A model generated the notes under the pieces. It did no database searches, was not told the DNA's origin, and was given only the letters and a program-made list of their open reading frames with translations. Positions 4,057 through 63,624 of a stretch of 64,000 nt of DNA are shown here, piece by piece (position 1 is the stretch's first letter; the number at the start of each line of letters is the position of its first letter). The translations under genes were made by a program, and so were the position numbers. The stretch spans positions 576,001 to 640,000 of the forward strand of contig CP084166.1 in the NCBI GenBank assembly GCA_021513695.1. The letters are read 5' to 3'. The DNA is from Candidatus Heimdallarchaeum aukensis (GTDB taxonomy: Archaea > Asgardarchaeota > Heimdallarchaeia > Heimdallarchaeales > Heimdallarchaeaceae).

Positions 4057-4116
4057 AATAATAATAATTAAGATTAGTTTAAAAATACCAAAAATAAATT
4101 ATGAACGCATGAGATA

Positions 4117-7960: not shown

Positions 7961-8092
7961 CTTCTGATTGAGTTCAATTTTTTGATCTATAGAGCTTAAT
8001 AATTTACTAATAAATTTTTGTATTCTTAAATTAGGTATAGGAAGTGGGATATTTTCAATAATTGAGGTATTTAAGGAAGGTCTAGTAGTACC

Positions 8093-9934: not shown

Positions 9935-9935
9935 C

Positions 9936-11593: not shown

Positions 11594-12030
11594 TCATCCG
11601 GCATTCCATGAACATGTTGAACTATTTTGAAAACAGCATCAAAAACAGCTTCAGGTCTGGGAGGACAACCAGGAATATACATGGTTACAGGAAGATAATC
11701 TTCAAGCTTCTTAACAGTGTTATATGAATCCCAATACATCCCACCTGTTATTGGACATGAACCCAATGCTAAGACAAACTTTGGATCAGGCATTTGCTCA
11801 TAAATCTTTTGTGCTCTCTTCATTGATTTTGGTGTCTGAAAACCAGCAATAAACAACACATCAGCCTTTCTTGGTGAATTAACTGTTATCATTCCAAAAC
11901 GTTCCATATCCCATCTTGAACCTACAACTGGAACAAGTTCAGTAAATCCACAAGAGTTAAACCAATTAAAAACCCAAATAGCTTTTACAAAATATTTCAT
12001 CACAGTTTTCTTCTTAACCATCCTTTCCAC
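11590..12030 (-). CDS. NuoB / hydrogenase small-subunit-like [4Fe-4S] protein
   Basis: Motifs GSCPITGG and IPGCPPRP present. The usual tandem CC motif reads SCGFTE, so one of four canonical Cys is missing. Confidence 0.8.
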   Translation of the reverse strand: MERMVKKKTVMKYFVKAIWVFNWFNSCGFTELVPVVGSRWDMERFGMITVNSPRKADVLFIAGFQTPKSMKRAQKIYEQMPDPKFVLALGSCPITGGMYWDSYNTVKKLEDYLPVTMYIPGCPPRPEAVFDAVFKIVQHVHGMPDE

Positions 12031-26355: not shown

Positions 26356-27426
26356 ATGATATGGCTTTCTTTATCTTATTCAATTTTTTCTTTAATAATT
26401 TTAACAATGTTTCTGATTGTTATTATTATAAAACAACTTGAACTTCGATGTACAGCAGTTTATTTTCTAATCATGATCATTGTATCTATTATTGGATGGA
26501 TAGTTGGAGATATGTTACAGATCATTTTTAGCAGCTTGGAAAATAAAGAATTGGTTCTCCTATTTTCACGAATAGCTACTATAAGTAGCATGATTGCAAT
26601 GATTAGCACAGTCTTATTTGCTAGAGTTCTAACTGCTCGTCAAACTTTGAATTCAACAATCGTAATTATTGCTTTCATGTTGTTTAGTGCTGTCGTTGCT
26701 CTCACTTTAAGTTCTAGTTATAAAGTAATTGATCCACCTAAAGATGTAGAATTTTACAAGACCGAAGCAGAACTCTTATGGGTAATTTTTGATGGAGTTT
26801 TGGTAATATTTGCTGGTTCTGTTTTCCTTTACTATCTTATTCGACAAAGAAAAATTGTACAAAAAAGATACTTACCTGTTTTAACTTTAATGAGCGTAGG
26901 AGTCATAATCGCTTTCTTTGTTAGCACTATCCTTTACACAATTTATGCGATATGGTTTATTGTTCCTTTATTACATTTAGAACTGGTAAGCGCTAGTTTA
27001 GGCGCAATAATAATAGGAATAGCAATGATCAAAGGAGGAAAAGAAGCAATTTACTATTCATCAAGAGTTTTCTCATTACATATTTTTGATGAAGTAGGAA
27101 TAAGCTATTATGCTAGTGTTTTTCAAGCAGGATATATAGTTGATGAGCAATTAATCTCAGGAGTAGCATCAGCTATTATAAGTTTTGCAAAAGAACTAAT
27201 CGGAAAAGAGGTTTTTCCACGAGAAATAGATCTTGACGATTACTCATTATTACTAGCTAAAAAAGACAATATAATTATTCTAATAAGCGTGGAATATCCT
27301 ACTGCACATCTAAGACAGACGATGAACAATATTATTGAAAAATTCAGTATGGATATGAGTGAAGAGGAAATAGGAAATCTTGTTGAAAACTATATATGCT
27401 TTGAACCAAGAAAACTAGTCCACTAA
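26356..27426 (+). CDS. polytopic membrane protein with C-terminal Roadblock/LC7 (MglB-like) domain
   Basis: About 8 TM helices. C-terminus ...GISYYASVFQ...LISGVASAIISFAKELIGKEV...DDYSLLLAKKDNIIILISVEYP fits the beta-alpha-beta-beta Roadblock pattern also seen in 46018.. and 57494.. Confidence 0.5.
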   Translation: MIWLSLSYSIFSLIILTMFLIVIIIKQLELRCTAVYFLIMIIVSIIGWIVGDMLQIIFSSLENKELVLLFSRIATISSMIAMISTVLFARVLTARQTLNSTIVIIAFMLFSAVVALTLSSSYKVIDPPKDVEFYKTEAELLWVIFDGVLVIFAGSVFLYYLIRQRKIVQKRYLPVLTLMSVGVIIAFFVSTILYTIYAIWFIVPLLHLELVSASLGAIIIGIAMIKGGKEAIYYSSRVFSLHIFDEVGISYYASVFQAGYIVDEQLISGVASAIISFAKELIGKEVFPREIDLDDYSLLLAKKDNIIILISVEYPTAHLRQTMNNIIEKFSMDMSEEEIGNLVENYICFEPRKLVH

Positions 27427-31974: not shown

Positions 31975-32547
31975 TTGAACTCCATGACAGAAAAACAGTT
32001 TATTTTCAAAATTGTACTTATTGGTGATGGCGCAGTAGGAAAAACTTCTATTAGAATGCAATATATGGGATACGGATTCAATACCAGTCATCTTATGACC
32101 CTGGGAGCAGATTTTTCATCTATTGATAAAGAAATTATTCCTAACGAAAAATGGAAATTTCAAATTTGGGATTTAGCAGGACAACAAATGTTTGAACAAG
32201 TTCGAGCTCGTTTTTACAAAGGAGCTCAGGGTGCCTTACTTGTCTTTGATATCACTCGCCCTTCCTCTTTTCAAAACCTTCCCATGTGGTTAAACGAATT
32301 GTATAAATTCAACGGATCAGGAGTTGTCCCTGTTGTAGTCCTTGCTAATAAGAGTGATTTGAGAGATAGAAAAAGTGTTAAATTCAAACATGTAGAAAAA
32401 TATGTTTCTGAATTAAATCTGCGTACCCAACGCTATGGTGTAACTAATTATTGTTTAGAAACAAGTGCCAAGACTGGATTAAACATCGATAGAGCTTTTG
32501 AAATTCTCGGGAGAAGCATTCGAGATAAATCAAGCAAAAAAACATAA
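31975..32547 (+). CDS. Rab/Ras-like small GTPase (canonical motifs)
   Basis: G1 GDGAVGKTS; switch I TLGADF; G3 WDLAGQ; G4 LANKSDL; G5 ETSAK. Confidence 0.8.
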   Translation: MNSMTEKQFIFKIVLIGDGAVGKTSIRMQYMGYGFNTSHLMTLGADFSSIDKEIIPNEKWKFQIWDLAGQQMFEQVRARFYKGAQGALLVFDITRPSSFQNLPMWLNELYKFNGSGVVPVVVLANKSDLRDRKSVKFKHVEKYVSELNLRTQRYGVTNYCLETSAKTGLNIDRAFEILGRSIRDKSSKKT

Positions 32548-32628: not shown

Positions 32629-33195
32629 ATGCTCACATTTAAGATCCTTTTTATAGGCGATAATAGCGTAGGTAAAACTACTTTATTTAAAAAAATTGTT
32701 CAAAATGAAAAAAATAAAGAAAAGATCCCTTCTCTAAAAGCAGAAATAGTAAAAGTTTATCGTACAATCCAAGGAGAAGAAGTAGCTTTTGAACTATATG
32801 ATTTACCTGCGAGAGAACTTTTATCATCTCCTCAAAGAACAAAATGGTATTTAGGGACTGATGGAGCGTTTATAGTTTTTGACATTACAAAAGCAGAAAC
32901 GTTCAGAAGAGTAACATTCTGGCTAGAACAATTAATAAATTATAACAGAAAAGGGAAGATACCTATAGTATTAGTAGGTAATAAAATAGATATGAGAGAC
33001 AATCCTAATGTGAGAAATAGGACACTAAACCCTATAGATGCTCAAGCTTTCTGTCTTCGACTAAATCGTACATCAGCTAGAGAAGGAATTAATAATGAAT
33101 TCTTCGAAGTCTCAGCAATCTCAGGGAAAGGTTTAACTCAATTACTTGATGCATTAGCTAAAAATATTTATAACCATCACAAAAAAATAAAATAG
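32629..33195 (+). CDS. small GTPase paralogue with degenerate switch I/II (G3 = DLPARE)
   Basis: G1 GDNSVGKTT, G4 VGNKIDM and G5 SAISGKG are intact. Switch I reads SLKAEI and the DxxGQ motif is replaced by YDLPARE (no Gly, no catalytic Gln). Confidence 0.7.
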   Translation: MLTFKILFIGDNSVGKTTLFKKIVQNEKNKEKIPSLKAEIVKVYRTIQGEEVAFELYDLPARELLSSPQRTKWYLGTDGAFIVFDITKAETFRRVTFWLEQLINYNRKGKIPIVLVGNKIDMRDNPNVRNRTLNPIDAQAFCLRLNRTSAREGINNEFFEVSAISGKGLTQLLDALAKNIYNHHKKIK

Positions 33196-43312: not shown

Positions 43313-45883
43313 ATGTCTTCTAAAGATAAAAAACAATCTTCAGAACTAGAAAAAGCGATATTAGAAGCAAAATCAAGATTACAAAAAGTTGTTTCAAAGA
43401 AAGAAGGAAAATATATAAGAAAAAACGAATTAGAAAATGCGATTAATGAAGCTATTAGGAGTTTAAAACCTGTTTCTGAAGAATTAATTAATAAAAAAAT
43501 GAAAAACAGTGCTTTTAAAGAAGAACTATTAAAAGCAAAGTCTGAACTAAAACAAGTAAAACAAGCAAAGAAGAGAGTAACAAAGAACGAAATGGAATTA
43601 GCTATTAAAGAGGCTATTAAAAATCTAAAACCAATAACTGAAAAAGGAAAAAAACAAATGACTTCAAAAGGAGAACTAGAATTAGCCATTTTAGACGCTT
43701 TTTCTAAACTCATAGAAGTTTCAGAAGAAGAGAAAAACTATGCATTAACTAAAAAAGAACTGGAAATAATAATAAGAGATGCAAAGAGTAAATTGAAAAA
43801 AGTGCCAGGAAAAGAACTTAGGCACGCATTATCTAAAAAAGAGATTGAGCACGAACTAAGAGACCTAAAAAGAAAATTAAAACCTGTTCCAGAACAAGTA
43901 AAAGTTCCAGAACTCTCAGTTAAACAACTTAGAACAGCAATTAAAGAAGCAAAAGTAAGATTAAAACCAGTTCCAGAGAATTTAAAAAGCATAAGTTCTA
44001 TCTCAGTGGGAAGATCAATCAAGAAAGAAGGAGAGAAAATAAAAAGGAAACTTCTTCCAATTCCAGGAGACGCAAAAACTTTTGAAATACAAAATATCGA
44101 ACATATTAAACTCTTTTCTGCAGAAAGATTGGATTTCAAGAAGTTCTTAATAAAACTAGAAAAACAGAAACAACAACCACTACTAAAAATAATAATCAAT
44201 CCAAAAACAAAGTTCTGTAAGATAGAATTAATGAACAAAGATAACCCCACTTCTCCATACAACATTACGGCGGGAGGAGATATTTTAGAATTCACATATA
44301 CTTATCGTTTCTTATTTAAACACGGTTACATAAAAATAGAGAATAACTACCCTCTACTCCTTTCAGATAAACAATGGATTGTGTGGTATCTGAGAGAAAA
44401 AATAGAATTAACTTTCGTGGATATAGCCTTTGCAATGGACGAAACAGTAAGAAACGTGAGAAACTTGTTCAATCAAGCAGAAAAAAGAATAAATCAAATA
44501 CTAGACTTCGTTGTAAATGAAGAGCATTACCAGCTAGTTGCAGCACATGCAATGAAAAGAAAAGGAGTAAGAATACAACAGATTGGAGATACAATAATAG
44601 AGCCAAAAATTACAGAAAAATATCTGATTGAACAACAACAACTAGAAGAGCTAACACATATTGAAGAACTTGAAAAGAAAGTAGAAATACCAAGAGAGTG
44701 GGTAATAAAAACAGCTTATAAAATAGAAACACTAAAGGGAGGATATTATCTGTGGAAAGAGTTTCTAGGAGCACTAAACAAAGATTCCCTGTTGATGATA
44801 GAGAACGACAGCTTACCCCACGAAGAAGAATACTTGATAAACGCAATAGGTTTAGGAGGAGAGATAATTCCTGACATCAAGAGCAACTTCAAAAAACTCA
44901 TAGACATATTCTCAGAAGCTCCAGATGAACTAGTAAAAATAGGAGATACAGCCTTTTTCATGGGTTATATGGATAACATTTATTCTAGCCAATTTTGGAA
45001 TATAAGAAACTTCGTTAAAGGAAACAGGAAAAATTGGAAAAAAGATTTCGTAAAAATAGCAATAAAAGCATATTCAAAAGCTCTAGAAAAAATTAACCCA
45101 GCAGTTTATCCTATAAAGTACGGAGTGCTAAAAAACGATTTAGGAGTGTTCTACTTTTTTCTATCAGAACTAGAGCAAACTAAAAAGAATACTCTAGAAG
45201 CAATCAAAAATATGCAAGAAGCAAAAAATGCATTACCTTTAGAATTCTTTAAAACAAAACATAGCGATATATGCTACAATTTAGGACTAGCCCACTTATT
45301 AATTTCAAAAATAGAAAACAAAGAAGAGAACATAAAACAGGCAATTCTAAATTTCAATTTTGCCCTACAAGGAAGAACATTAAGAATGTACCCTCTAAAA
45401 TACGCGATAACGGAAGTAAATCTAGGAATAGTCTACCAAAAACTGGCAGAAATAGAAGAAACGTCATTAAACTGCACACTAAGTATAGAATCTTATAACA
45501 ACGCTCTACGATCAAACACACTAGACATAATGCCCACAGAAGCAGCAATGATATACAACAACATAGGACTAGCTTATTGCACATTATCAAAAGAACAAGA
45601 AACAGAATACAATATTTCACAAGCATTAATAGTACTAAACGATGCTTTAACAATAAGAAATGAAGCACAGTTCCCAGTTGAATACGCAATAACAACAAGT
45701 ATTTTAGGAAAAGCTTACACAATTTTAGCTACAGTCAAAGAAACAAAAAAGAATTACGAAAAAGCTATATCTGCATTTAACAAAGCAATTAGAATATTTA
45801 TCAAGAAATACGAAGATTTCTATCAAGCTATAATTCATGAAAAGGAGAAAATTGAAGAAAAACTAATAGATATTTCACAATAG
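43313..45883 (+). CDS. large repeat protein: N-terminal ~9 Lys/Glu-rich 25-30-aa tandem repeats, central sigma-70-region-4/LuxR-like HTH, C-terminal TPR-like helical repeats
   Basis: Repeats ELEKAILEAKSRLQKV / ELENAINEAIRSLKPV / MELAIKEAIKNLKPI ... LRTAIKEAKVRLKPVPE. HTH candidate LSDKQWIVWYLREKIELTFVDIAFAMDETVRNVRNLFNQAEKRIN. Minus-strand ORFs here are shadows. Confidence 0.55.
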   Translation: MSSKDKKQSSELEKAILEAKSRLQKVVSKKEGKYIRKNELENAINEAIRSLKPVSEELINKKMKNSAFKEELLKAKSELKQVKQAKKRVTKNEMELAIKEAIKNLKPITEKGKKQMTSKGELELAILDAFSKLIEVSEEEKNYALTKKELEIIIRDAKSKLKKVPGKELRHALSKKEIEHELRDLKRKLKPVPEQVKVPELSVKQLRTAIKEAKVRLKPVPENLKSISSISVGRSIKKEGEKIKRKLLPIPGDAKTFEIQNIEHIKLFSAERLDFKKFLIKLEKQKQQPLLKIIINPKTKFCKIELMNKDNPTSPYNITAGGDILEFTYTYRFLFKHGYIKIENNYPLLLSDKQWIVWYLREKIELTFVDIAFAMDETVRNVRNLFNQAEKRINQILDFVVNEEHYQLVAAHAMKRKGVRIQQIGDTIIEPKITEKYLIEQQQLEELTHIEELEKKVEIPREWVIKTAYKIETLKGGYYLWKEFLGALNKDSLLMIENDSLPHEEEYLINAIGLGGEIIPDIKSNFKKLIDIFSEAPDELVKIGDTAFFMGYMDNIYSSQFWNIRNFVKGNRKNWKKDFVKIAIKAYSKALEKINPAVYPIKYGVLKNDLGVFYFFLSELEQTKKNTLEAIKNMQEAKNALPLEFFKTKHSDICYNLGLAHLLISKIENKEENIKQAILNFNFALQGRTLRMYPLKYAITEVNLGIVYQKLAEIEETSLNCTLSIESYNNALRSNTLDIMPTEAAMIYNNIGLAYCTLSKEQETEYNISQALIVLNDALTIRNEAQFPVEYAITTSILGKAYTILATVKETKKNYEKAISAFNKAIRIFIKKYEDFYQAIIHEKEKIEEKLIDISQ

Positions 45884-46017: not shown

Positions 46018-48018
46018 ATGAAAAGTTTTTTACCTAAATTTCTGCTTAATGAAATCGATCTTTATTTAGATGATTCTCAGAAGTCTATTTTTGAAGAGAA
46101 GGTTAAAAGTATTGTAAGTAATGCTTCTGACTATGATACGATTTCCAAGGACATTACTGCCTTTCTTTTGAATGAAGATTTTACTGATTTAACGACTTAT
46201 GATCAAATGCTTATTCTTGTTTCAATTCTTCTAAATTACTGGAAAAAGGATTATTCTCTTATTTTTAGCATCTATGACAAATTTCATTCTTTTGATTTAC
46301 CTCTTAGCGTTATGATTTGTTTTCTTCTATTTTTTCAAGAATCTTTTGATTTAACCACTTTTAACCTTTGGAGAGAGAAGATAGAAGAGTACATTACAAA
46401 CATTTCTGATTCTACTGAAAAAGAATTTCTTAAAACTGCTATTGAGCAATTTGCTTCTAAGCTTGAGCAAAGGCCTGAGGTTGGTTATCGTTCTATGAAT
46501 CAGCTTATTCGTTCTCTTGAGGAGAATGAGCATATTTCTTATCGATATCCTTTTGTTTTCGAGGCTTTAGAGATTGATCTTATTCAGTACTCTAACATTT
46601 TAGCTGATGAAGTTTTTTCTGAAATCTGGATTGAGTCCGCTAGAAGAAGAGCTGAAGTTATGGAAAACTATGGCATGTTAGTTCAAGTTAACAGCCTTCT
46701 TGCTAGTATTTTAGTTAAAGAGTATCATCTTGAAAAAGCTAAAGAGAAAATTGAGGAGGGGTTAGAGATTGCTAAGAGGATCAATTCTCCTATTTTAGCT
46801 GCTCAAATTGAGTTGAACAAGGCCTTGTTATTGAAGATGCAAGGTAAGTTGGACGAAGCTTTGAAGTTATATGAAAAAATTGCTAAAGTTAAGAATCTTC
46901 CTCAAACTTTTCAATTGGATATTTACAGTAAAATAGGTGAAATTTATCTCAACAAGGACGAGATAGTTAAAGCTGAAGAATACTACCTTAAAGCTCACGA
47001 GATTAATAAGAAACTTAATTTTATCAATCCTCTTGTTGAAATAGTTATAGGTTACATTAACCTGATTTTAGAGAAAGATAAGGGGGAAGCTTTAGATGAG
47101 GGGTTGAAGATTGCTGAAGAACAGTTTGATTTTTCTTCTATTCCTTACTACTACTTCTACAAAGGTATTTATGAGCAACAAAGGGTTAACTTATCCTTAT
47201 CTATTGAATACCTTGAACAAGCTTTGAACTCTTTTGAGCACCAAAAGAACTTTGAGGGTATTGTTTATACTAACGGTGCATTGGCAGAGTCTTATCTTCA
47301 GATTTACAAGCTTCTTCACGATAACAAATATTCTTCTCGGTTCCTCTATTATATTGACAATCTTATTGAAATACTAAAGGAGTTAAACAATCCTTTGTAT
47401 GTTGAAGCAATAAAGACTAAAGCAGGTTACTATTTAGATAAAGGTTTAATTAAAAATGCTGAAGATCTGTTTATTGATGGAATAGAATTTGCTAGGACAC
47501 GAGGATTAAAAGAGGAAGAAATATATCTTAAGGAATCGCTTACTAACAAGAAGAATTTAACAAAAATAACTTTAGAAGGTACTCAAATACTCTTTAGAAA
47601 AATAAGGATGTTCAGCTTTGGTAAGCATAAAACTGTTCCCACCAAATTATACTTACTTTTAGCCATTAATGAAGCTGGAATTCCTTTAGTTTCTCACTCT
47701 TTTACTGAAGAAGAGATGGTAGATGATCTTTTAGTTTCAGGGTTAATTTCAGCTATAATTAATTTCTCTTCTGAAGTTCTAGGAAAAGGAGGAGAAACCT
47801 TACGATCAATAAATCATGAGGGCAAAGCTGTTATAGTAGAGAAAAAGGACAATGTGATGGGTATCTTAGTTGCTGAAGATGAGAATTTCGAGATGAGACT
47901 GGAACTTAGACAGTTTTTGCAGAAAGCGCTTGATAAGTTAGTTTCTGGACTTCCTATTGTCAGAGAAAACGACAGTGAGATTTTTTCTATTATAGAAGAA
48001 GTTTTTGAGAGAAAATAA
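46018..48018 (+). CDS. TPR-repeat protein with C-terminal Roadblock/LC7 (MglB-like) domain
   Basis: Multiple TPR-like helices in residues 200-520. C-terminal LLLAINEAGIPLVSHSF...LVSGLISAIINFSSEVLG...EGKAVIVEKKDNVMGILVAED matches the Roadblock beta-alpha-beta-beta-alpha layout. Confidence 0.6.
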   Translation: MKSFLPKFLLNEIDLYLDDSQKSIFEEKVKSIVSNASDYDTISKDITAFLLNEDFTDLTTYDQMLILVSILLNYWKKDYSLIFSIYDKFHSFDLPLSVMICFLLFFQESFDLTTFNLWREKIEEYITNISDSTEKEFLKTAIEQFASKLEQRPEVGYRSMNQLIRSLEENEHISYRYPFVFEALEIDLIQYSNILADEVFSEIWIESARRRAEVMENYGMLVQVNSLLASILVKEYHLEKAKEKIEEGLEIAKRINSPILAAQIELNKALLLKMQGKLDEALKLYEKIAKVKNLPQTFQLDIYSKIGEIYLNKDEIVKAEEYYLKAHEINKKLNFINPLVEIVIGYINLILEKDKGEALDEGLKIAEEQFDFSSIPYYYFYKGIYEQQRVNLSLSIEYLEQALNSFEHQKNFEGIVYTNGALAESYLQIYKLLHDNKYSSRFLYYIDNLIEILKELNNPLYVEAIKTKAGYYLDKGLIKNAEDLFIDGIEFARTRGLKEEEIYLKESLTNKKNLTKITLEGTQILFRKIRMFSFGKHKTVPTKLYLLLAINEAGIPLVSHSFTEEEMVDDLLVSGLISAIINFSSEVLGKGGETLRSINHEGKAVIVEKKDNVMGILVAEDENFEMRLELRQFLQKALDKLVSGLPIVRENDSEIFSIIEEVFERK

Positions 48019-48101: not shown

Positions 48102-50084
48102 TTAGGAAACTAAAGGTCTAACTTGATACTTTAGTCCTATAATTTTCATTATATCTACTGCATCTTCAATGGTGTTTGCTGATACTTCTAGTTCTTCAAT
48201 TATTTGATCTATATAGAGTATTTCTACTGTACTCATCTTTTCTGTCTCTGGAAGAAGTTTTTCTAGAGCTTTATGATTATTTATGTCTAATTCATGTTCT
48301 ATAGCATGTACATCGTTAAATATTGGATGAGAAGCAAGTGGTTGAATGCATACTACTTCTAATACTTCTACTGCTTTGTCGATCAAGTCGCATAGTAAAT
48401 CACACTCTTTTCTCAAGTATTGGGCAAAATAATCTTCTATTTTCTCTCTTGGAATATAGAGTATTTTCCTTAGAGAGCGTAAGATGTAACCTATCGCTTT
48501 ATCGAGTGTTGTTGTAAGTTTGTAAAAGTGGTAGTCATCTGGAGCAGGTCTAACACTGCTGTACATTACTTGAGTAACCTTAAATACAAGATCATCTGCA
48601 CGCCTTTCTTCTTCTTTTGCTTCCCTCATAAGTTTAATGGCTTGTTCTTTATCGCCATCCAAATATTTCTTAAATGACTGAGCTAGTAAATGAATTGTTT
48701 TCTGTACTTTTTCTGCGTGTTTTATTGAATGAGAGGCTTGCACCCATCCTGGTCTTGTTTCTATTGCTAATATTAAGAATGATAAGCCAAGAATGATTAA
48801 TAGTATTCCACTTACTAAGAAAGGAAATTTGAAGACATTACTAACTACACTATTGCCTAGAAACTGTAATGATTCAAAATTTACTACTAGTCCTGCTAAA
48901 CCGAGTACAAGTAAAGGTCCAGTGAAGTAGCCTGAATCTAAAGATGAGCGATAAACACCTATACTTTTTTCTCTTTTTATTATAGGAACAACATCCTTTG
49001 TTATACTTGGAAGAGAAGGATAATACAGAGAAGTACCTAGTCCAGCAAGCAAAGTTAATAATACTACAACTCCAAAAACATCAGTGAATATAATCAGTAT
49101 AATACTAGATCCAGCAAGAATAAATCCAAGTATCATAGGTGTTTTTCTTCCAATTCTATCGCTTAATTTACCCGTGAAAGGCATACTTATTGACCAAGCT
49201 AAAGTGAAAACTGAGGTGGCTATACCAATTTGTACATTAGAAAAACCGTAAACAGTTGATAATAGGAGCGGAAAAATCAAAACTAGAATACTATCTGTTA
49301 TTCTAGAAATGTGTCCTCCCAAATTTGCTAAGATTAGTGTTGGAACTCTAAAAATATTTTTTGTACTCCATCTACTTTCCACTTTTGTTGCATCCAACAG
49401 TACTGAATCTTTTGTTCCTGCAACCAGATCTGTAGTTTCTACATTCTTAATAAATACAAAACCAAAAGCTAGAGCTGTTCCTGCAATTATTAAAGCAAAG
49501 ATGAAAGTTTCAGCAAAACCTAAGTTATTTGCTATCACACCTGCTAAGAATGAACCTAAACTTGAGCCTAAGTACACTGAAAATTCCATTGAACCCACTG
49601 AAAAAGCTGCTCCTTCGTAACCTGCAATATCAGTGAGTGCTGACATAGTCGAAGTAAAGAGTAAACCTAATCCCCCTCCGATGAAAGCGTTACCTAAAGG
49701 TAAAGCCCATAAGTTTCTTGAAAATGCTAAAGCGAATGAACCACAAAGAAGCAATATTAGTCCTATTCTAATAGTCCATTTTCGTTGATATTTGTCACTA
49801 ATAGATGAGCTAAAGAATCCTGCTATACCTTTAAATAGCCCATAAGCTATTACAGCAGAAGATATTTGGAGAAAAACTATGAAACTTTTTTGGAAATTTT
49901 CTTTTGATTCAAAGAGAGGAAAATCGGTAAATGATTCACCAAAGAGAGAAAGAGAGGTTCTTTGAACACCATAAGCTATACCTGCAAAAAGTAGTACAGT
50001 AATTATTGGTCCCCACTTGGAGATAGACTTTAAAAATGAGAAACTTTCCAGCTTTTTTTCTTTCATTTCCATACAATTATTCAA
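48102..50084 (-). CDS. MFS transporter fused to a C-terminal ~200-aa cytoplasmic helical domain
   Basis: 12 TM helices in the first 450 aa, then a charged helical region (HSIKHAEKVQK...EERRADDLVFKV...). Confidence 0.65.
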   Translation of the reverse strand: MNNCMEMKEKKLESFSFLKSISKWGPIITVLLFAGIAYGVQRTSLSLFGESFTDFPLFESKENFQKSFIVFLQISSAVIAYGLFKGIAGFFSSSISDKYQRKWTIRIGLILLLCGSFALAFSRNLWALPLGNAFIGGGLGLLFTSTMSALTDIAGYEGAAFSVGSMEFSVYLGSSLGSFLAGVIANNLGFAETFIFALIIAGTALAFGFVFIKNVETTDLVAGTKDSVLLDATKVESRWSTKNIFRVPTLILANLGGHISRITDSILVLIFPLLLSTVYGFSNVQIGIATSVFTLAWSISMPFTGKLSDRIGRKTPMILGFILAGSSIILIIFTDVFGVVVLLTLLAGLGTSLYYPSLPSITKDVVPIIKREKSIGVYRSSLDSGYFTGPLLVLGLAGLVVNFESLQFLGNSVVSNVFKFPFLVSGILLIILGLSFLILAIETRPGWVQASHSIKHAEKVQKTIHLLAQSFKKYLDGDKEQAIKLMREAKEEERRADDLVFKVTQVMYSSVRPAPDDYHFYKLTTTLDKAIGYILRSLRKILYIPREKIEDYFAQYLRKECDLLCDLIDKAVEVLEVVCIQPLASHPIFNDVHAIEHELDINNHKALEKLLPETEKMSTVEILYIDQIIEELEVSANTIEDAVDIMKIIGLKYQVRPLVS

Positions 50085-52182: not shown

Positions 52183-54399
52183 TTACCCTAATACTAGTTC
52201 TTTTTCTGGTTTTGACTTCTGTTTAGTCTTTTTTGTATCTATTGTTTTTTTCTCTATTTCTGTATCTTTTTTCTTAACTATATCATCTTTCTGTTGATCT
52301 AGGGATGTTTCTACTTTCTCTTTCTTTTCTTTAATATACTTAGCTTCTTCTACACTTACTTCTTCTGTCTCTTTTGTATCATTTTGTTGTTTTTTCTCTT
52401 TGATTTCTTCTTTAGAAGGAACAACTTTTTTTGAAATCCTCTCTTTTCTAGTATCTTTTGCTTCTTGTCTCGTTTCTTTTTTTACCTTTGTCATTATTTT
52501 AGGTTCTGACTTTTGTTCTTTCTCTTTTTCTAGTTCTTCAACTATTTTAATTTGCATTTCTTTTTTGACTCTTTCATATAAATTGACTGACCAAGGTAAA
52601 TTCTCTTGAATTGAAATATTAGAGAGAGAACGAAGAATCTCTATAACAAATTTTTTCTGTGTTTCCTTGTTACTTGAAAGCTTGTTATATGCATTTGACA
52701 AAATAGAATAAACTTTTTCTTCCTCAGTGTAAAGAAACAACATATTTCTGATTACTGTTGAAAGATCTCTATTTTTCTCAAATTGGAAAATGTTCTTGCA
52801 TATTATATCTTCAAATACTTTTTTAAGGGTAGAATCATTTTTTTCTACTGTTTTTAGATCAAAACAAGTTTGAATACTTTCAATAGTTAAGTTTTGTAAA
52901 GAGTTAGAAATGAAACCCTTTTTTTGATTTAATGTTGTGATTACTCCATTTAGGAAGTTTGTGCTCAAGGTTTCTGCGCAAATAGATAACAGTTCATTTT
53001 TTTGATTAGTAAAAACTAATTCACTCTTTAGATTTTGTAAAATGACTACAACTTCTTCTACATCAAAGTCTCCTGAAATCTTGTTTTTTATTGATTCCTC
53101 TGAAAAGAATACTGAATAATAATAGAATTTTTCACTTAACTCTGATAACGTAGGATCTTTACTTTTATTCATATCTTTTATATTCATTGAAAGTGCAACT
53201 AACAACCCTCGAATAATTTTTTCAAAATCTCTTTTTTCTTCTTCTTTTGAAACTTGGAGTTTAAATAACATTATAATTAGTTTATTGATTTGTAAAAGAA
53301 CTAGTTCTTTTTCTTTTAATGTTAAATCTGATAACTCGGTATCTATTGCAATTACTGATTTATCTAATAAAAAGTTTAGATTTTCTCTTGTCTTTGAATT
53401 AAGTTTGCTTTCTTTACCTAAAGCATGAAAATAAGCAAAAGTGCTAATAGCAAATAAATTAATTCTCTCTTCTAGTCTATTTAAAAAAACTTCAAAGTTT
53501 CTAACTATTTTATCTAATTTTTCTTCAGGTTTATCTTGCTGCTCTAAACCTATTTTAAAGCTATTTAGGTAGTCTATTGAACATTTTGAAGAAAAGATGT
53601 ACAATATTGTTGGATAAAAAGTTAGATATTCAAGGAGCTCTTTCTTAATCAAATTAATGTCAAAGAAATAGTTAGATGCTCCCATTAAAAGTGCAAAATC
53701 AGTAAGAAATTGTGCTTTCTCAATAGGTAAAAATTTTAACAAATCGTTTTCTAAATACTCAAATCGAATGAGTTTTCTTCCGCAAGAAGGGCAAGACTCT
53801 TCATTAACTATTTTTTGTCCACATATTGAGCATAAAACAGTCTTTTTTCTTATTTGTATTCCACATTGATTACAATAATTGCTGTCAGGGTGATTAGAAG
53901 AATCACAGTTTAAACATTTAACAACCTTAAAAGAAGGTTTTTCTTTTCTTTCAAAGTATTCTTCTTTTTGTTCTTGTTCGATACTTGTCTCTTTCTGGTG
54001 AATGTCAAATTTTAAACCACAATATTTACAAAAACGAGCGTTTGGAGGATTAACAGTTTGACAGTTTGAACAAATCAAAATGTTTGGTTCACTTTTTTTC
54101 TCTGTAAATCTTGCACCACATTGGGTACAAAATTTTGCATCAATTTTTTGCATAGATCTACAAAAAGGACAAGCTTTTGTCTGTGAGCTACTTTTATTTT
54201 TCTTGTTTCTTTCATTAGCAAAGTTGTATCCACATTTAGAACAAAACAGAGCTTCATTTCGAACATATTTCTGACAAACAGGACATTGTTTAAGAAGTGT
54301 ATATTCAGTAGGAGTATCGATTTTATTTCCACAGTGAGTACAATAAGAAACTTCTTTTTTATTCAGAAGACCACATCTATTGCACATCTTTTGTATCAT
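52183..54399 (-). CDS. protein with six tandem N-terminal zinc ribbons, central helical domain and K/E-rich C-terminal tail
   Basis: CNRCG..CTHCG, CPVCQ..CSKCG, CPFCR..CTQCG, CSNCQ..CKYCG, CLNCD..CNQCG, CSICG..CPSCG. Confidence 0.6.
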   Translation of the reverse strand: MIQKMCNRCGLLNKKEVSYCTHCGNKIDTPTEYTLLKQCPVCQKYVRNEALFCSKCGYNFANERNKKNKSSSQTKACPFCRSMQKIDAKFCTQCGARFTEKKSEPNILICSNCQTVNPPNARFCKYCGLKFDIHQKETSIEQEQKEEYFERKEKPSFKVVKCLNCDSSNHPDSNYCNQCGIQIRKKTVLCSICGQKIVNEESCPSCGRKLIRFEYLENDLLKFLPIEKAQFLTDFALLMGASNYFFDINLIKKELLEYLTFYPTILYIFSSKCSIDYLNSFKIGLEQQDKPEEKLDKIVRNFEVFLNRLEERINLFAISTFAYFHALGKESKLNSKTRENLNFLLDKSVIAIDTELSDLTLKEKELVLLQINKLIIMLFKLQVSKEEEKRDFEKIIRGLLVALSMNIKDMNKSKDPTLSELSEKFYYYSVFFSEESIKNKISGDFDVEEVVVILQNLKSELVFTNQKNELLSICAETLSTNFLNGVITTLNQKKGFISNSLQNLTIESIQTCFDLKTVEKNDSTLKKVFEDIICKNIFQFEKNRDLSTVIRNMLFLYTEEEKVYSILSNAYNKLSSNKETQKKFVIEILRSLSNISIQENLPWSVNLYERVKKEMQIKIVEELEKEKEQKSEPKIMTKVKKETRQEAKDTRKERISKKVVPSKEEIKEKKQQNDTKETEEVSVEEAKYIKEKKEKVETSLDQQKDDIVKKKDTEIEKKTIDTKKTKQKSKPEKELVLG

Positions 54400-57493: not shown

Positions 57494-59419
57494 TTAATTA
57501 ATATATGTTAGAATGAAAGAATCTTGTATAAGATCTTCTATTTTCTTTTCTTCTATTTTGTCAAAAAACTTACCTGTTTTTGGAATGGAAGTTAGTTTAT
57601 GCCATAATTCCTCGAATTTTCCAATGTTATTAACAAAGTTATCTATCTTTTTATTGGCAGTGAAAGAAGAGCCTTTGAACACATAACAAAAGATTATTCC
57701 TTCCTTGTTTTTGAACGTCAAAAAGTAGTCATGATATTCTACTTGCTTGATTGAACCTTCTGTTGCTAAAACCTCTTTTAATATGTTATTTAAAGCAGAA
57801 AGGAATCCTGAAAATAGAATACTGTCATATTTCTCCTCACTAAAGTTATAACTGTAAAGTGGTATTCCATGTTCATTTAGAATAAGCAACATAACTGGAG
57901 TGTCTTTTTCTATTACTTCGAGTTCGTAGCTAACCCTTTGTATCATCTGCGAAACTAAAGTGTCAACTTGTGTTTTTTCTATTCTTTTCTTTATACTCAC
58001 ATCAGAATTAAGAATTGCTTTCCATTTATTATGTTCTCTTACAATTGAATCATATTCTAAACTTATTTTTTGAGCTAAATTGTCTAATCCTTGAGAAAAA
58101 GCTATCTCCTGCGCTTTTAATAAATCCTCTTGAGCTTCATCAAGATTTAGTTGAATTAGATTAATCTTTCCTTTTAACCAGTAAGCTTCTGCTAAGAGAG
58201 ACCTAGATATTTGCATTTCTGCAATTTTTAATAGCTGAATGTTTATATCCTTTAGTTCATCTATAATTTCGCTTTCATTAAAAATAGTAAGCTCTTCTAG
58301 CAATATTTCAGTAAGGTTTAACATCGCATGAATATTTATCTCATTGTAAATTTCATTCGTTCTAATAATAGAATGAAGAAGAGAGATAGCTTTCGCTTGT
58401 GAAACAAATCTTTTTCGCTCTTTTAATACACTTGCTTCTGTTAGTTTAGCATAAAAACTCAAAAACTTGTTTTTTTCCTTTCTAGATAATTTTTTTAATT
58501 CTTTCAAGTATTCCTGAGCTTTCGATATTTGCCCTAGTAAAATGTGTAACTTAGTCAAATAATAGGTGGATTCAGCTATAATATAGTTAAATTTAACTAA
58601 TTTTGCATAATTTATACTTTTATCGAAAAAATCTAAAGCTAGATTAAACTCTCCTTTACTGAAATAAACGATGCCTATATTATTGAAAACTTGTGAAATT
58701 CCAAAAATATTTTCTTTTTCTTGATAGTTAATTAAAGCATCGTTATATAGTTCAACCGCTTTATTTAGATTTCCTTTTAATCTATAAATCTCACCTATAG
58801 AAATTAAAGTATTGTTAATTATTTGCTTCGAGTTTAAAAATTCACCATAAACAAGACACTCTTCAAAACAAGCAAGGCTTTGATTTAGATTTCCTTTTTG
58901 GGCATTTATTTTTCCTTCTCTATATTTTAAAAAAGCATAAATTTTGGTCTCATTCTTCTCTTTAACTAATTGTAAAGATTTTTTTACTAAATTCAGTGCT
59001 CGTGGTAGATCTTTATAGATAACCAGTAAAGCTTGGCAGAGATTGAAAATGGCATTAACTTCATTTTTATCTTTCTTAATTACCTTTGATTTTGTTTTTT
59101 TGAAGTGTAATAAAATTTCTTCACTTTTTTTGTTTTGTGATAAAAGGAGAGAAAAAACCTCTATCAAATAATAGTAAACATAGAAATCATTAGCCATAAG
59201 TTCTTTCTCATTTTCAAGGTAACTTAAAAGTTGAAGGCCAAATACTTTGCAATCCTCTACTTTACCAAACTCATAAGCTGTTTCAACTTTGTGATTTAAT
59301 AAACTTCTTTTTTCAATTGAAGGTTGTTTTCTCTCTTCTTCATGGTTATTTATTTGGGTAATAATTTCAGAATATTTGGTTGAATCTAGAATTTTTTCGT
59401 TTTCTATGAAATCTATCAC
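57494..59419 (-). CDS. TPR-repeat protein with C-terminal Roadblock/LC7 domain (paralogue of 46018..48018)
   Basis: TPR helices through residues 60-470. C-terminus VMLLILNEHGIPLYSYNF...ILFSGFLSALNNILKEVLA...DYFLTFKNKEGIIFCYVFKG. Confidence 0.6.
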   Translation of the reverse strand: MIDFIENEKILDSTKYSEIITQINNHEEERKQPSIEKRSLLNHKVETAYEFGKVEDCKVFGLQLLSYLENEKELMANDFYVYYYLIEVFSLLLSQNKKSEEILLHFKKTKSKVIKKDKNEVNAIFNLCQALLVIYKDLPRALNLVKKSLQLVKEKNETKIYAFLKYREGKINAQKGNLNQSLACFEECLVYGEFLNSKQIINNTLISIGEIYRLKGNLNKAVELYNDALINYQEKENIFGISQVFNNIGIVYFSKGEFNLALDFFDKSINYAKLVKFNYIIAESTYYLTKLHILLGQISKAQEYLKELKKLSRKEKNKFLSFYAKLTEASVLKERKRFVSQAKAISLLHSIIRTNEIYNEINIHAMLNLTEILLEELTIFNESEIIDELKDINIQLLKIAEMQISRSLLAEAYWLKGKINLIQLNLDEAQEDLLKAQEIAFSQGLDNLAQKISLEYDSIVREHNKWKAILNSDVSIKKRIEKTQVDTLVSQMIQRVSYELEVIEKDTPVMLLILNEHGIPLYSYNFSEEKYDSILFSGFLSALNNILKEVLATEGSIKQVEYHDYFLTFKNKEGIIFCYVFKGSSFTANKKIDNFVNNIGKFEELWHKLTSIPKTGKFFDKIEEKKIEDLIQDSFILTYIN

Positions 59420-59679: not shown

Positions 59680-62600
59680 ATGAAAAAGAAGACAATAACT
59701 TTGATCTTTATACTGTTAATAATGATTCAAGTATCTTCTTTATTTATAGAAACAGAAGCTTCAAATTACATATATACTCAACTTAAGTGGAGAAAAATAT
59801 CAAGCTACAATTATGGAGAAGCTTCTTTCTTTGACTATGATAAAGACGGAAAATTAGATGTTTTTTTTAAAACAGCAGAAGGCATAGAAATTTACAATCA
59901 TAAAGGAAATCTATTAAAGAAAATTCATGGTTATTTCCAATATACCCCCACAATTACAGACCTAGAAAAAGATGGAGATTTAGAGTTTATTACTCAAAAC
60001 TACTATGGAATAGAAATATACGATTCTACCGGACAATTAAAAGAACAGAACTTAACTTTATATAGTGCCTACGCGAGAATTGTGGTTGCAGACATTAACA
60101 ATGACGGGATACAAGAAATAATTTATCATTCCACAGGTGATATAATATGCTTCAACAATCAATTAGAAGAAATTTGGAGCTATAAATTTGAAAATCCAGA
60201 CTATTATGGAAGTATTTATGATCTCGTAGTTAATTCAGATGCAGATTCTGAAAAAGAAATTGTAGTTTATTATGACAACTCGATTTATCTATTTAATACA
60301 GATGGTGAAAAAAAATGGTCAAAATCCTTACCTTCTGAAGGAATTGTCGCTTATGATTTTAATGATGATGGTATAGATGAAATAATTGGAACCAAATCAT
60401 CAGATTACACAATTTACTCTTTAAACAGTCAAGATGGTTCTGAATTGTGGATTAATGAAATGGCTGTAAACTTAAACCCTTTGCCTATTGACCTTGATCA
60501 AGATGGAATTGTAGAATTAATAGCTCTTTCTACTGATAATGACAAGTCTGAATCTTATATTAATTATATCAATGGAAAAACAGGAGAAGTAGAAGAACAG
60601 GTAACTGTAGATCAAAGATTCTTTACTAATTCATATTACGAATTCTTTCCTGAAACTCCAGCTGTAGGAGATTTTGATGGTAATGGGGTGTTGGACCTTA
60701 TCTTTCTTGCTTTTTCATATGCTTATAGTGTTGCTACACTGATTTATTCTGCAGATGGGTATAGAATAGCAGAATTTGACGAGGGTTCACTAACAACTCC
60801 AACAATTGTTGACCTGGATGGTAATGGAAGAACAGAAATAATGATACGTGATTATTCAGGAATATTCTGCTATGAGGTTACTGGATCAACTTCTGGAAAA
60901 AATATCTGGTATAAAGAAAGAGGAAATATAGCTAATACAATGGTAGTAGATACAGATGGAGACTTGCTAGATGATATAAGCGAAGAATTTTATGGTTCAG
61001 ATAAAGGAAAAGAAGATACTGACGGTGATACCCTTTTAGACGGAATAGAGATAATTGGTTCTGGTTCTTCACCTATAAAACAAGACACTGATGGAGATGG
61101 TTTAACAGATGATGTTGAATATGAATTAGGTTTCAACCCAAGATTAAATGACTTAGATTTGGATTATGATGATGATAGTTTAACCAATTATGATGAAGTA
61201 TTTGTTTATTCAACAAATCCTATGTCTAATGATACAGATAACGATTTACTACTTGATAATGAAGAAATTAATACTTATGGAACGTCTCCAACAAACAACG
61301 ACACAGATGCAGATGGTGTTATTGATGGAGAAGAAGTACATACTTACGGAACATCACCATTAGATAATGATTCAGATGACGATGGAATGGAAGACGGATA
61401 TGAAGTCTTATACAACTTAGATCCTCTTGTAAATGATAGTTATGGAGATATTGACTCAGATGGTTTGTTAAATATTGAAGAGTTTACATACAATTCAAAC
61501 AGTTCAAATGTAGACACAGATAATGACACAATTTCAGATGGTGATGAAGTTCATACTTATGGAACGTCTCCAACAAACAATGATTCTGATGGAGATAATC
61601 TCACAGATAATGAAGAAATTTATACTTATGGAACGTCTCCAACAAACAACGACACAGACGCAGATATTATGTGGGATGGTTGGGAGATTGAATATGGATT
61701 TAATCCCTTAATCGACGATGGAGATGAAGATTTAGATTCTGACGGTCTTTCCAATGCTGAAGAATTTATTTATTCAACAGAGCCTAACAATACTGACTCA
61801 GATTCTGACCAACTCCTTGATGGAGAAGAAGTACATACTTATGGAACAGACCCTGCTAAAATTGATAGTGACGAGGATGAGCTTACTGATTATGAAGAAG
61901 TTATAGTTTATACAACAAATCCTGTGTCTAACGATACTGATAATGACTTAATGGGTGATTATTATGAGGTTAATCATGGTTTAAACCCCCTTGTAAACGA
62001 TACTTTAGGCGATCTTGACAATGATACTCTAACAAATTATGAAGAATTTTTACTTGGTACTTTACCTAATAACAATGATACTGATGGAGATGGAATGAGT
62101 GATGGTTTTGAGTATCAATATGGACTAATTTTAACTGACAATGATTCTTCATTGGACAAGGATAAGGATGGTTTATCTAACCTTGACGAATTTTTACATA
62201 ATACCAACCCTCTCTCTAATGATACTGATGGAGATGGAATGTTTGATGGTTTTGAAGTGCAATATAACCTTAACCCAAATTTAAATGATTCTGCAGGAGA
62301 CCCTGATGCTGATGGAATATCAAATATTGATGAAATGAAATATGGTTCATCACCAATTAGCTCTGATACAGACAGTGACCGTCTAACCGATCCTGAAGAG
62401 ATATTCATCTATCACTCTAATCCTGCAATAAAAGATACAGATGGAGATGGTTTAGAAGATGGAGAAGAAGTACTTGATTTTGGTACAAGCCCAACTAACG
62501 AGGATACAGACGGGGACACTCTTAGTGACTATGTAGAGATTTATGTTTTCCTCACTGACCCAACAGACCCTGATACAGATAACGATGGAATGAATGATGG

Positions 62601-63624
62601 AGAAGAAATAGAAATAGGAAAAGATCCGCTTACTAAAAACTACTACACACCACTTTCTAAACTTCTACTTATATTGCCTATTGTTGGAGGAATAGTCCTC
62701 TTTGGTGGCTTAATATATGGAGCTATGATTTTTTCTAAGAAAATTAAAGAGAGAAAGCGTAAAGAGATAGTAGAAAAAGAGATTCTGTTGCTTAAATCTG
62801 AGCATCTAAATTTAGATGACAGGATAAACATTCTAGCAAAAAAAGAATCTATTTTTACTGATAAAATCACTTTTCGCTCTTTGGTTGATGTGACTAAACT
62901 CTATTTCAACTTTCTTGCAAAATTTGACGATAAATACACTTTAATTACTAAATTCAAAGAAGTTGGTAATCTTCAGGAATGGAATGAAGTGAAGGAGAAA
63001 GCTTTTTCATCCTTTGAACGGCTATTAAATACAATAAAAGACAATCTCCATTCCTTTGACATAAACGACATAATAAAGAATCAGTATCCTTCACTAATAA
63101 ATCTTGAAAAGAAAGGCGAACTAACAGCAAAAGAACTCTTACAAGTTCATTCTGATGGAAAAGATTTACACCTCTATGTTGAAGAATTCAAAAAATATCT
63201 AAAGATTTTACTAAGAAGATTGAACGCTTTAGAATCTCTCTTTTCAACTAAAGATGAGCTTTTGGATATTGTTGCTTCAAGTTCAATTATTACTGCTCTA
63301 AAAGAAAAAGATTCATTAATTACTCAACTAGAGAGGAACGAGATCAAATATGTTCGAGAAAAAATAAATGCAGAAAATCATTGTATTTACTGTGGTATTC
63401 AACTACATGATGATGCTAAAACATGTTCAAACTGCCAACGCACTCTTCCTTCTTGCCCTATTTGTAAAAATACTTTCAGATTCTTTGATGAAGTCTATAC
63501 TTGTCCCGAATGCTTTTCAAAGATTCATAAAGATGAACTGGAGATTTGGTTAGGAGATAAAGGAACTTGTCCTAAATGTAACAAATCTATTACTTTATAC
63601 AACTTAGATGTTGAAATAATCTAA
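59680..63624 (+). CDS. giant type-I membrane protein: signal peptide, FG-GAP (integrin-alpha-like) beta-propeller, ~20 TSP3-like Ca-binding repeats, TM helix, cytoplasmic coiled-coil and C-terminal 10-Cys zinc finger
   Basis: Signal ITLIFILLIMIQVSSLFI. FG-GAP blades DYDKDGKLDVFF, DLEKDGDLEFIT, DINNDGIQEIIY, DFNDDGIDEIIG, DLDQDGIVELIA, DFDGNGVLDLIF, DLDGNGRTEIMI. About 23-aa repeats N(D/T)TDxDGxxDGEEVHTYGTSPxN. TM LLILPIVGGIVLFGGLIYGAMIF. Tail CIYCG..CSNCQ..CPICK..CPEC..H..CPKCN. Confidence 0.7.
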   Translation: MKKKTITLIFILLIMIQVSSLFIETEASNYIYTQLKWRKISSYNYGEASFFDYDKDGKLDVFFKTAEGIEIYNHKGNLLKKIHGYFQYTPTITDLEKDGDLEFITQNYYGIEIYDSTGQLKEQNLTLYSAYARIVVADINNDGIQEIIYHSTGDIICFNNQLEEIWSYKFENPDYYGSIYDLVVNSDADSEKEIVVYYDNSIYLFNTDGEKKWSKSLPSEGIVAYDFNDDGIDEIIGTKSSDYTIYSLNSQDGSELWINEMAVNLNPLPIDLDQDGIVELIALSTDNDKSESYINYINGKTGEVEEQVTVDQRFFTNSYYEFFPETPAVGDFDGNGVLDLIFLAFSYAYSVATLIYSADGYRIAEFDEGSLTTPTIVDLDGNGRTEIMIRDYSGIFCYEVTGSTSGKNIWYKERGNIANTMVVDTDGDLLDDISEEFYGSDKGKEDTDGDTLLDGIEIIGSGSSPIKQDTDGDGLTDDVEYELGFNPRLNDLDLDYDDDSLTNYDEVFVYSTNPMSNDTDNDLLLDNEEINTYGTSPTNNDTDADGVIDGEEVHTYGTSPLDNDSDDDGMEDGYEVLYNLDPLVNDSYGDIDSDGLLNIEEFTYNSNSSNVDTDNDTISDGDEVHTYGTSPTNNDSDGDNLTDNEEIYTYGTSPTNNDTDADIMWDGWEIEYGFNPLIDDGDEDLDSDGLSNAEEFIYSTEPNNTDSDSDQLLDGEEVHTYGTDPAKIDSDEDELTDYEEVIVYTTNPVSNDTDNDLMGDYYEVNHGLNPLVNDTLGDLDNDTLTNYEEFLLGTLPNNNDTDGDGMSDGFEYQYGLILTDNDSSLDKDKDGLSNLDEFLHNTNPLSNDTDGDGMFDGFEVQYNLNPNLNDSAGDPDADGISNIDEMKYGSSPISSDTDSDRLTDPEEIFIYHSNPAIKDTDGDGLEDGEEVLDFGTSPTNEDTDGDTLSDYVEIYVFLTDPTDPDTDNDGMNDGEEIEIGKDPLTKNYYTPLSKLLLILPIVGGIVLFGGLIYGAMIFSKKIKERKRKEIVEKEILLLKSEHLNLDDRINILAKKESIFTDKITFRSLVDVTKLYFNFLAKFDDKYTLITKFKEVGNLQEWNEVKEKAFSSFERLLNTIKDNLHSFDINDIIKNQYPSLINLEKKGELTAKELLQVHSDGKDLHLYVEEFKKYLKILLRRLNALESLFSTKDELLDIVASSSIITALKEKDSLITQLERNEIKYVREKINAENHCIYCGIQLHDDAKTCSNCQRTLPSCPICKNTFRFFDEVYTCPECFSKIHKDELEIWLGDKGTCPKCNKSITLYNLDVEII
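61230..62640 (+). repeat. nucleotide-level tandem/dispersed repeats encoding the TSP3-like units of the giant protein
   Basis: acttatggaacgtctccaacaaacaa(c/t)ga recurs at about 61274, 61556 and 61624; longer about 90% identical blocks 61240-61400 vs 61540-61690. Confidence 0.55.

Follow-up and report, generated by a model that had tools for sequence, protein, structure and literature searches.

Membrane traffic in eukaryotes is regulated at its core by small GTPases together with longin and Roadblock platforms. Two large open reading frames, ORF A and ORF B, of Candidatus Heimdallarchaeum aukensis bear on how the archaeal ancestor had this system wired. Both are located in a 64,000-nucleotide stretch of genomic DNA (the window; Table 1). 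A sequence-only reading of the window had described them as paralogs of 640 to 670 amino acids (aa) in which a tetratricopeptide repeat (TPR) scaffold is fused to a C-terminal Roadblock/LC7 (MglB-like) domain and had suggested that they serve the Rab-like GTPases of this genome as adaptor/GAP platforms. The two ORFs are present exactly where this reading had placed them, with lengths of 666 and 641 aa. Exact-sequence look-up assigned the window to Ca. H. aukensis and identified ORF A as UJG41335.1, annotated as "tetratricopeptide repeat protein." Between 48 and 63.6 kb, the window runs collinear with Ca. H. endolithica, with protein identities of 68 to 95%, and the gene at the position collinear with ORF B shares 85% identity with it (tblastn, locus L013). 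The start of ORF B agrees with that of its ortholog P0013.

Table 1. Coordinates of the TPR-longin features in the window and of one related locus (L006, numbered separately)
Feature	Position (nt)	Strand	Description or basis
ORF A, TPR-longin protein	46018..48018	+	ATG start, 666 aa; ORF listing
ORF A residues 7-530, all-alpha solenoid	46036..47607	+	28 helices, about 14 helical hairpins (DSSP on AlphaFold model)
ORF A residues 542-665, C-terminal longin domain	47641..48012	+	AlphaFold model, strand/helix order
ORF B, second TPR-longin protein	57494..59419	-	GTG start, 641 aa; ORF listing
ORF B residues 130-442, MalT-like TPR region	58094..59032	-	Pfam matches
ORF B residues 502-636, C-terminal longin-like domain	57512..57916	-	BLASTP to ORF A domain, family profile, weak Fuz_longin_1 match
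7-TM longin protein	26356..27426	+	356 aa; longin-like domain at residues about 238-339 (27067..27372)
L006, example of a triplet of TPR-longin paralogs	2148..4196, 4255..6345, 6378..8423		Co-directional

TPR solenoid and C-terminal domain of ORFs A and B

The proposed TPR scaffold was borne out by TPR matches at or above the Pfam thresholds in both proteins. The repeats of ORF A that are detectable by Pfam cover residues 228 to 333 (matches to TPR_2, TPR_1, TPR_12, and TPR_MalT), with scores of 31.0 bits for TPR_2 (cutoff, 27) and 28.3 bits for TPR_1 (cutoff, 27.8). For ORF B, TPR_12 reached 57.4 bits (cutoff, 30.1), TPR_MalT 45.0 bits (cutoff, 45), and TPR_2 46.4 bits. An AlphaFold model of full-length ORF A, computed with a 70-sequence alignment, displayed a pLDDT of 86.4 and a pTM of 0.85, and its first 200 residues formed helical hairpins. 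Foldseek matched the modeled solenoid to the TPR domains of LGN/Pins (E = 1.4e-5, 17 to 18% identity), APPBP2, Tom70, APC5, and the Rap family, all of which are superhelices that bind peptides or proteins. Pfam detected no catalytic domain in ORFs A and B, be it an NTPase, a kinase, DENN, or any other, and a hydropathy scan revealed no convincing transmembrane segment in either of them. ORFs A and B thus resemble LGN/Pins and MalT-like scaffolds in the LGN match of the ORF A solenoid and in the TPR_MalT matches common to both proteins. They differ from these scaffolds by the absence of GoLoco motifs and of the NB-ARC, AAA, or other STAND NTPase domain of STAND/MalT-type signaling NTPases, with no NTPase domain match in 70 relatives either, whereas the known scaffolds lack a C-terminal longin.

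The C-terminal alpha/beta domain comprises about 120 aa in both ORFs. The motifs on which the Roadblock assignment had been built were found (GIPL at residue 554 and LVSGLISAI at residue 572 of ORF A; GIPL at 518 and LFSGFLSAL at 535 of ORF B), but the assignment itself did not hold. A model of the isolated ORF A domain (residues 530 to 666, 11-sequence alignment, pLDDT of 60.6) gave the order E-E-H-E-E-E-H-H, with elements E15-22, E27-32, H41-61, E69-71, E74-81, E84-91, H95-115, and H123-133. The full-length model gave E544-551, E556-561, H570-588, E597-600, E603-610, E613-619, H624-643, and H653-664 and hence the same order, beta-beta-alpha-beta-beta-beta-alpha-alpha. In the ORF A model, G554-I-P556 is part of the b1-b2 loop, and helix a1 carries G575xxxA579. 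Neither model shows the Roadblock topology alpha-beta-beta-alpha-beta-beta-beta(-alpha). Longin domains lack the N-terminal helix of Roadblock and carry an extra C-terminal helix instead (Tran et al., PMC10933270), and the predicted order, which is that of a longin, argues against a Roadblock domain. Roadblock/LC7 proteins such as MglB, LAMTOR2/3, and dynein LC7 (PF03259) begin with a helix and have no more than one helix at the C-terminal end, whereas the ORF A domain is modeled with two strands first and two helices last. Its nearest structural neighbors are solved longin domains and not Roadblock proteins, and the best structural matches include AP sigma and mu subunits.

Profile searches pointed in the same direction. 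Robl_LC7 (PF03259) gave no match at an E value of ≤1 for full-length ORFs A and B or for their C-terminal fragments, and a Robl_LC7/MglB search of the last 110 to 140 residues, which had been proposed as a check, was likewise negative for both. Across 44 family domains, Robl_LC7 matched 2 (best E = 0.0047), and one relative reached 11.7 bits compared to a cutoff of 23. Strictly, the predicted fold is thus a different one from that originally assigned; nonetheless, longin and Roadblock are related folds, both of which act as platforms for GTPases (PMC10933270). What stands of the original architecture is a helical-repeat scaffold that ends in a small alpha/beta domain belonging to the Roadblock/longin/profilin superfamily.

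The description of ORFs A and B as paralogs applies to their C-terminal domains, which are homologous beyond chance (A546-634 versus B510-596, 30% identity, E = 6e-9, BLASTP). It does not extend to the helical parts, which yielded no significant alignment (best E = 2.2, BLASTP), and the two proteins belong to different subtypes. The ORF B domain also matched the family profile, which had the ORF B sequence among its members.

An Asgard family with a Mon1/Fuz-like longin

A profile of the domain was searched among 1.84 billion proteins, with clusters at 50% identity. It matched 1,430 representative clusters at E values of ≤1e-3, 197 of them at ≤1e-10. Most of the best 150 of these 1,430 are 600 to 790 aa long and carry the domain at the very C terminus (median tail of 1 residue). 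TPR_12 was detected in 68 and TPR_MalT in 64 of 70 full-length members (Pfam), and some relatives carry this domain behind short N-terminal regions of other kinds. All named members are from Asgard archaea (Heimdallarchaeota/-aceae, Hodarchaeota, Promethearchaeota/Lokiarchaeota, Harpocratesius, Odinarchaeota, and Thorarchaeota), and their public labels are solely "tetratricopeptide repeat protein" or "hypothetical protein." The domains divide into at least two subtypes, an A-type ("LRSINHEG...VLVA..ETF"), which includes ORF A, and a more common B-type ("ERIKH..YT...FCYVFKG.SY"), which includes ORF B. We are highly confident of the structural identity of these proteins, a TPR solenoid plus a longin in a family seen only in Asgard archaea.

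Conservation was computed over 209 domains. The hairpin Gly is conserved in 95% of them and is followed by Pro at position +2 in 50%. Helix a1 carries a conserved run, L-[IV]-[SG]-G-[FL]-[LI]-[ST]-A-[IL]-N, whose G (91%) and A (93%), at a spacing of four residues, rank with the best-conserved positions of the domain; a Phe (88%), an Ile (86%), a His (70%), and a terminal Phe (89%) follow the same trend. No universally conserved Arg was found among the 209 domains, the best Arg being present in 66% and offset by one position between the subtypes, and a GAP arginine finger was rejected on these grounds. Longin GAPs are marked by a contiguous GP motif before b2 and a catalytic arginine finger (PMC12290439). 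The family resembles FLCN, NPRL2, SMCR8, and the "GP-motif" Asgard longins in its longin fold and in the Gly and Pro of the b1-b2 loop (PMC12290439) but differs from them in its noncontiguous G-x-P motif (G-I-P in ORFs A and B), of which the Pro is kept in half of the domains. It further differs in that a DENN/NPRL2 C-terminal domain is absent from ORFs A and B and from the 25 most frequent Pfam families in 70 relatives. With both the universal Arg and the contiguous GP motif absent from the family, the GAP role that had been suggested is unsupported.

The only fold-relevant Pfam matches of ORFs A and B were weak ones to Fuz_longin_1 (PF19036; LD1 of FUZ/MON1/HPS1). The ORF A domain scored 14.7 bits (E = 0.036) and residues 510 to 582 of ORF B scored 14.6 bits (E = 0.039), both under the gathering threshold of 26.1. 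Fuz_longin_1 matched 25 of 44 diverse family domains at E values of ≤1 (best E = 1.3e-6), while Intu_longin_1, Sybindin, and Longin matched 4, 2, and 1, respectively. The A-type relative P0008, whose domain is 50% identical to that of ORF A, reached 31.6 bits, which is above the 26.1 cutoff, and has a precomputed PF19036 assignment as well. A comparison of the family profile with PDB sequences returned the LD1 of MON1A (E = 0.53) and Trs23 (E = 0.86), both sub-significant; the sub-significant MON1A alignment has a G-x-P-[VL]-Y-S hairpin and an "RSI.H.G" strand in common with the family. A single-domain sequence search of the PDB produced noise only (e.g., ribosomal P0 and adenosine deaminase). 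In sequence, the longin of ORFs A and B thus appears closest to the first longin of the eukaryotic Mon1/Fuz/HPS1 Rab-GEF subunits. Judged by the models and the profile matches, the C-terminal domain is a longin of the Mon1/Fuz LD1 type, within the Roadblock/longin/profilin superfamily, and not a Roadblock domain.

The overall layout differs from that of the eukaryotic proteins. The tri-longin Rab GEFs (Mon1-Ccz1, Fuzzy-Inturned, and BLOC-3) have three longin domains, whereas ORFs A and B have one; the first longin of Mon1/Fuz/HPS1 is N-terminal, whereas that of ORFs A and B follows the TPR solenoid at the C terminus. In the full-length model of ORF A, a single longin domain and not three consecutive ones comes after 28 helices. 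We also considered that the A-type might be Mon1-like and the B-type Ccz1-like. This idea was dismissed, since the tested B-type domains had no Fuz_longin_1 or Intu_longin_1 matches and Intu_longin_1 matches were scarce and weak.

A screen of all reading frames of the window with a family profile built without the sequence in question revealed a third copy of the domain (E = 6e-18), which had not been part of the sequence-only reading. It belongs to UJG41319.1, labeled "hypothetical protein" (exact-sequence look-up), and shares 29% identity with ORF A (E = 6e-8, BLASTP). The hydropathy scan predicted seven transmembrane segments between residues 7 and 220 of this protein, which had no Pfam match.

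Gene neighborhoods

Many Heimdallarchaeota MAGs (GTDB genomes) encode full-length orthologs of ORF A, at about 43% identity. In all ten other Heimdallarchaeota loci with sufficient upstream sequence (L003 to L012), the ortholog is the last gene in a back-to-back series of three TPR-longin paralogs (10 of 10), which share one direction and code for about 680 to 740 aa each. The first two genes of the triplet share 25% identity over their full length, and each has its own domain variant. Ca. H. aukensis lacks the triplet at ORF A, where the upstream gene codes for an unrelated 856-aa protein (UJG41334.1, exact-sequence look-up). That this TPR protein is a degenerate family member was rejected (BLASTP, E > 0.1), and a WH2 reading of its repeats had no Pfam support. 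A split form was observed on metagenomic contig L014, where a 554-aa TPR gene is directly followed by a 110-aa longin gene, and another metagenomic contig (L015) harbors a stand-alone 115-aa copy of the domain. The tandem triplets hint at hetero-oligomers. Taken together with the split-gene form and the GxxxA on the central helix, they lead us to infer that the longin may be a homo- or heterodimerization module.

The two GTPase genes that had been noted between 31975 and 33195 were confirmed as tandem Ras-family genes (31975..32547 and 32629..33195; PF00071, E = 4e-40 and 6e-26). They were the only GTPases obtained when every large ORF of the window was compared with Pfam, and the same comparison yielded no Robl_LC7 gene. 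The pair lies 13 kb from ORF A, with unrelated transporter and enzyme genes in between. No GTPase gene was found beside family members in the window, L006, L014, or L015. Asgard GTPase genes are generally located outside operons with Roadblock or longin genes (Tran et al., PMC10933270). A conserved neighbor of the family is an MFS-PhoU_div transporter gene; because its orientation is convergent or other genes intervene, this probably reflects plain synteny.

Proposed function, alternatives, and meaning

We propose that ORFs A and B are soluble scaffolds, each built of a TPR superhelix of about 520 residues and a single longin at the C-terminal end. The longin would act as an assembly module that pairs with a second longin, provided by a TPR-longin paralog or by the 7-TM longin protein of the window. 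Pairing may occur via the central helix with its nearly invariant GxxxA pair of small residues and an edge strand, by analogy with longin and Roadblock dimers; in Roadblock dimers, the central helix is where dimerization takes place (PMC10933270), and dimeric platforms for small GTPases are formed by longin domains as well (PMC13408092). The resulting two-longin platform could dock a small Ras-superfamily GTPase, as TRAPP, Mon1-Ccz1, and Ragulator do, and a GEF-like or adaptor mode would be likelier than a GAP mode. A peptide or protein partner would occupy the TPR groove and thereby be tied to the membrane or the GTPase switch. The 7-TM longin protein could fix such assemblies to the membrane. 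Because no examined family member adjoins a GTPase gene, the platform role is drawn by analogy only. An adaptor or regulator role for small GTPases is plausible, and a GTPase-platform function of the TPR-longin proteins is a tentative proposal that falls somewhat short of an even chance. For the explanation as a whole (scaffold, longin pairing, GTPase docking, and TPR partner binding), we consider the chances to be balanced.

The main rival is an assembly or coat-like role without GTPase regulation. The longin would then serve for oligomerization and core packing, and the solenoids of the paralogs would build a hetero-oligomeric scaffold or cargo adaptor. In AP and COPI, the sigma and mu N-terminal longin domains are oligomerization and core-packing modules, and the half-complexes combine a large solenoid subunit with a sigma- or mu-type longin subunit. 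The structural matches to AP sigma and mu and the absence of a GTPase linkage would fit such a role. However, the sequence likeness is to the LD1 of Mon1/Fuz and not to sigma-adaptin, and Clat_adaptor_s is outside the 25 most frequent of the 38 Pfam families matched by 44 domains. In addition, the solenoid is of the TPR type, whereas adaptins are of the HEAT/ARM type, and appendage and mu-homology domains were not detected. We regard the coat-like role as unlikely.

A signal-transduction module, in which the longin-like domain senses a ligand or signal or provides an output and is joined to varied inputs (MalT-like TPR or 7-TM), is a doubtful alternative. It would draw on the 7-TM module in the window and the other short N-terminal regions that carry the same domain, on the frequency of TPR_MalT among the members, and on the longin fusions with two-component signaling domains described by Liu et al. 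(10.1101/2020.10.19.343400). Such a module would resemble the Asgard NPRL2-like longin fusions to two-component domains. The original proposal of a Roadblock/LC7 (MglB-like) domain and of GAP platforms for the Rab-like GTPases is highly improbable. The models lack the N-terminal helix and end in the two C-terminal helices of a longin, Robl_LC7 did not match either ORF, no Arg is universally conserved, and the GTPase genes are not adjacent. In a bolder version of our preferred reading, the GTPase-docking scaffold, the TPR-longin paralogs and the 7-TM longin protein would join via their Mon1/Fuz-like longins into hetero-oligomers that are anchored in the membrane and serve Asgard small GTPases as exchange-factor platforms. 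The family would then also be the archaeal stock of the LD1 found in the tri-longin Rab GEFs of eukaryotes (Mon1-Ccz1, Fuzzy-Inturned, and BLOC-3); we consider this version a long shot.

The Roadblock/longin superfamily of Asgard archaea comprises 130 asCOGs with many lineage-specific architectures (Liu et al., 10.1101/2020.10.19.343400). Fusion partners described for Asgard longin and Roadblock domains include GTPase, TRAPPC3, DENN, NPRL2-C, Vps28-C/adaptin-appendage, and two-component domains (Liu et al., 10.1101/2020.10.19.343400; Tran et al. 2024, PMC10933270), and some Vps28-C/adaptin/longin proteins carry TPR repeats (Makarova et al., PMC10936438). The longin of a Lokiarchaeota Roadblock-Longin protein (PDB 8YQG) is a further example from this group. 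That longin and Roadblock proteins have expanded in Asgard archaea and shuffled their domains is already well known, and the TPR-longin family is a variant of that theme. Among the papers searched, a set that did not extend to the asCOG tables, none described plain TPR-solenoid-longin proteins as a family, their affinity to Mon1/Fuz, the tandem triplets, or the 7-TM variant.

The present analysis corrects the Roadblock call to longin. Furthermore, the "TPR protein" labels conceal a large, paralog-rich, and so far Asgard-only family with a Mon1/Fuz-like longin. Its triplets, split-gene form, and membrane-anchored copy are concrete candidates for archaeal longin hetero-complexes. If GTPase binding proves true, the TPR-longin proteins would provide a prokaryotic model of GEF platform assembly; if it proves false, the longin domains of Asgard archaea would be general assembly modules.

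Gene neighborhood of ORF A and its orthologues

Immediately upstream of ORF A, the gene for the TPR-longin protein UJG41335.1, lies the gene of an 856-aa protein (UJG41334.1) that carries TPRs at its C terminus and about eight copies of the Lys/Glu-rich motif ELExAIxEAxxxLK(P/K)V within its N-terminal ~260 residues. The repeats bear some resemblance to WH2 motifs, which bind actin and are composed of a helix plus LKKV; however, their spacing is not like that of WH2 motifs, and no WH2 match was obtained in a Pfam search of the protein, even at E ≤ 10.

In other Heimdallarchaeota MAGs (loci L003 to L012), the ORF A orthologue was found to be the last gene of a conserved, codirectional triplet of TPR-longin paralogues, and this triplet is missing at the ORF A position in Ca. 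H. aukensis. On the metagenomic contig L014 (6258..8333), the TPR-longin architecture is divided between a gene for a 554-aa MalT-like TPR protein and, after a gap of 78 bp, a separate gene for a 110-aa longin protein. This arrangement could represent a true split or a frameshift.

In many Heimdallarchaeota MAGs, the ORF A orthologue is followed, 2 to 4 kb further downstream, by a conserved gene in convergent orientation that encodes an MFS transporter fused to PhoU_div/DUF47 (55 to 59% identity). Conserved counterparts of the 1314-aa and 738-aa proteins are also present in the relative Ca. H. endolithica.

Features of the window and of one comparison locus (L006)
Feature	Coordinates	Strand	Remarks
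Type I restriction-modification genes	4117..8847		HsdR, 1051 aa; HsdS fragment, 235 aa
Complex-I-like or group 4 [NiFe]-hydrogenase-like subunit cluster	9557..12030	-	
7-TM longin protein UJG41319.1 ("hypothetical")	26356..27426	+	356 aa
Ras-family small GTPase, first of tandem pair	31975..32547	+	PF00071, E 4e-40
Ras-family small GTPase, second of tandem pair	32629..33195	+	PF00071, E 6e-26
856-aa protein	43313..45883	+	
MFS transporter	48102..50084	-	C-terminal PhoU_div/DUF47 domain
738-aa protein	52183..54399	-	At least four double zinc ribbons
1314-aa protein	59680..63624	+	FG-GAP repeats, bacterial TSP3 calcium-binding repeats, TM segment, C-terminal zinc ribbons
Example triplet of TPR-longin paralogues	L006 2148..8423		

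GTPase genes and other loci

The tandem Ras-family GTPases showed weaker matches to Arf, Roc and Gtr1/RagA. Their genes are followed by that of a YdjM-family membrane protein and displayed no positional linkage to the TPR-longin genes of the window. Elsewhere, an rve-type integrase ORF adjoins the HsdR/HsdS genes, which possibly constitute a mobile or disrupted defence locus. The complex-I-like or hydrogenase-like cluster comprises a 20-kDa subunit, a 30-kDa subunit, a 49-kDa/NiFe large subunit and a 4Fe-4S ferredoxin.

A longin protein with predicted transmembrane segments

For UJG41319.1, which has no match in Pfam, seven TM segments were predicted, followed by a C-terminal longin-like domain of the same kind as in ORF A and ORF B (the second TPR-longin protein). 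UJG41319.1 represents a membrane-anchored relative, one left out of the sequence-only reading.
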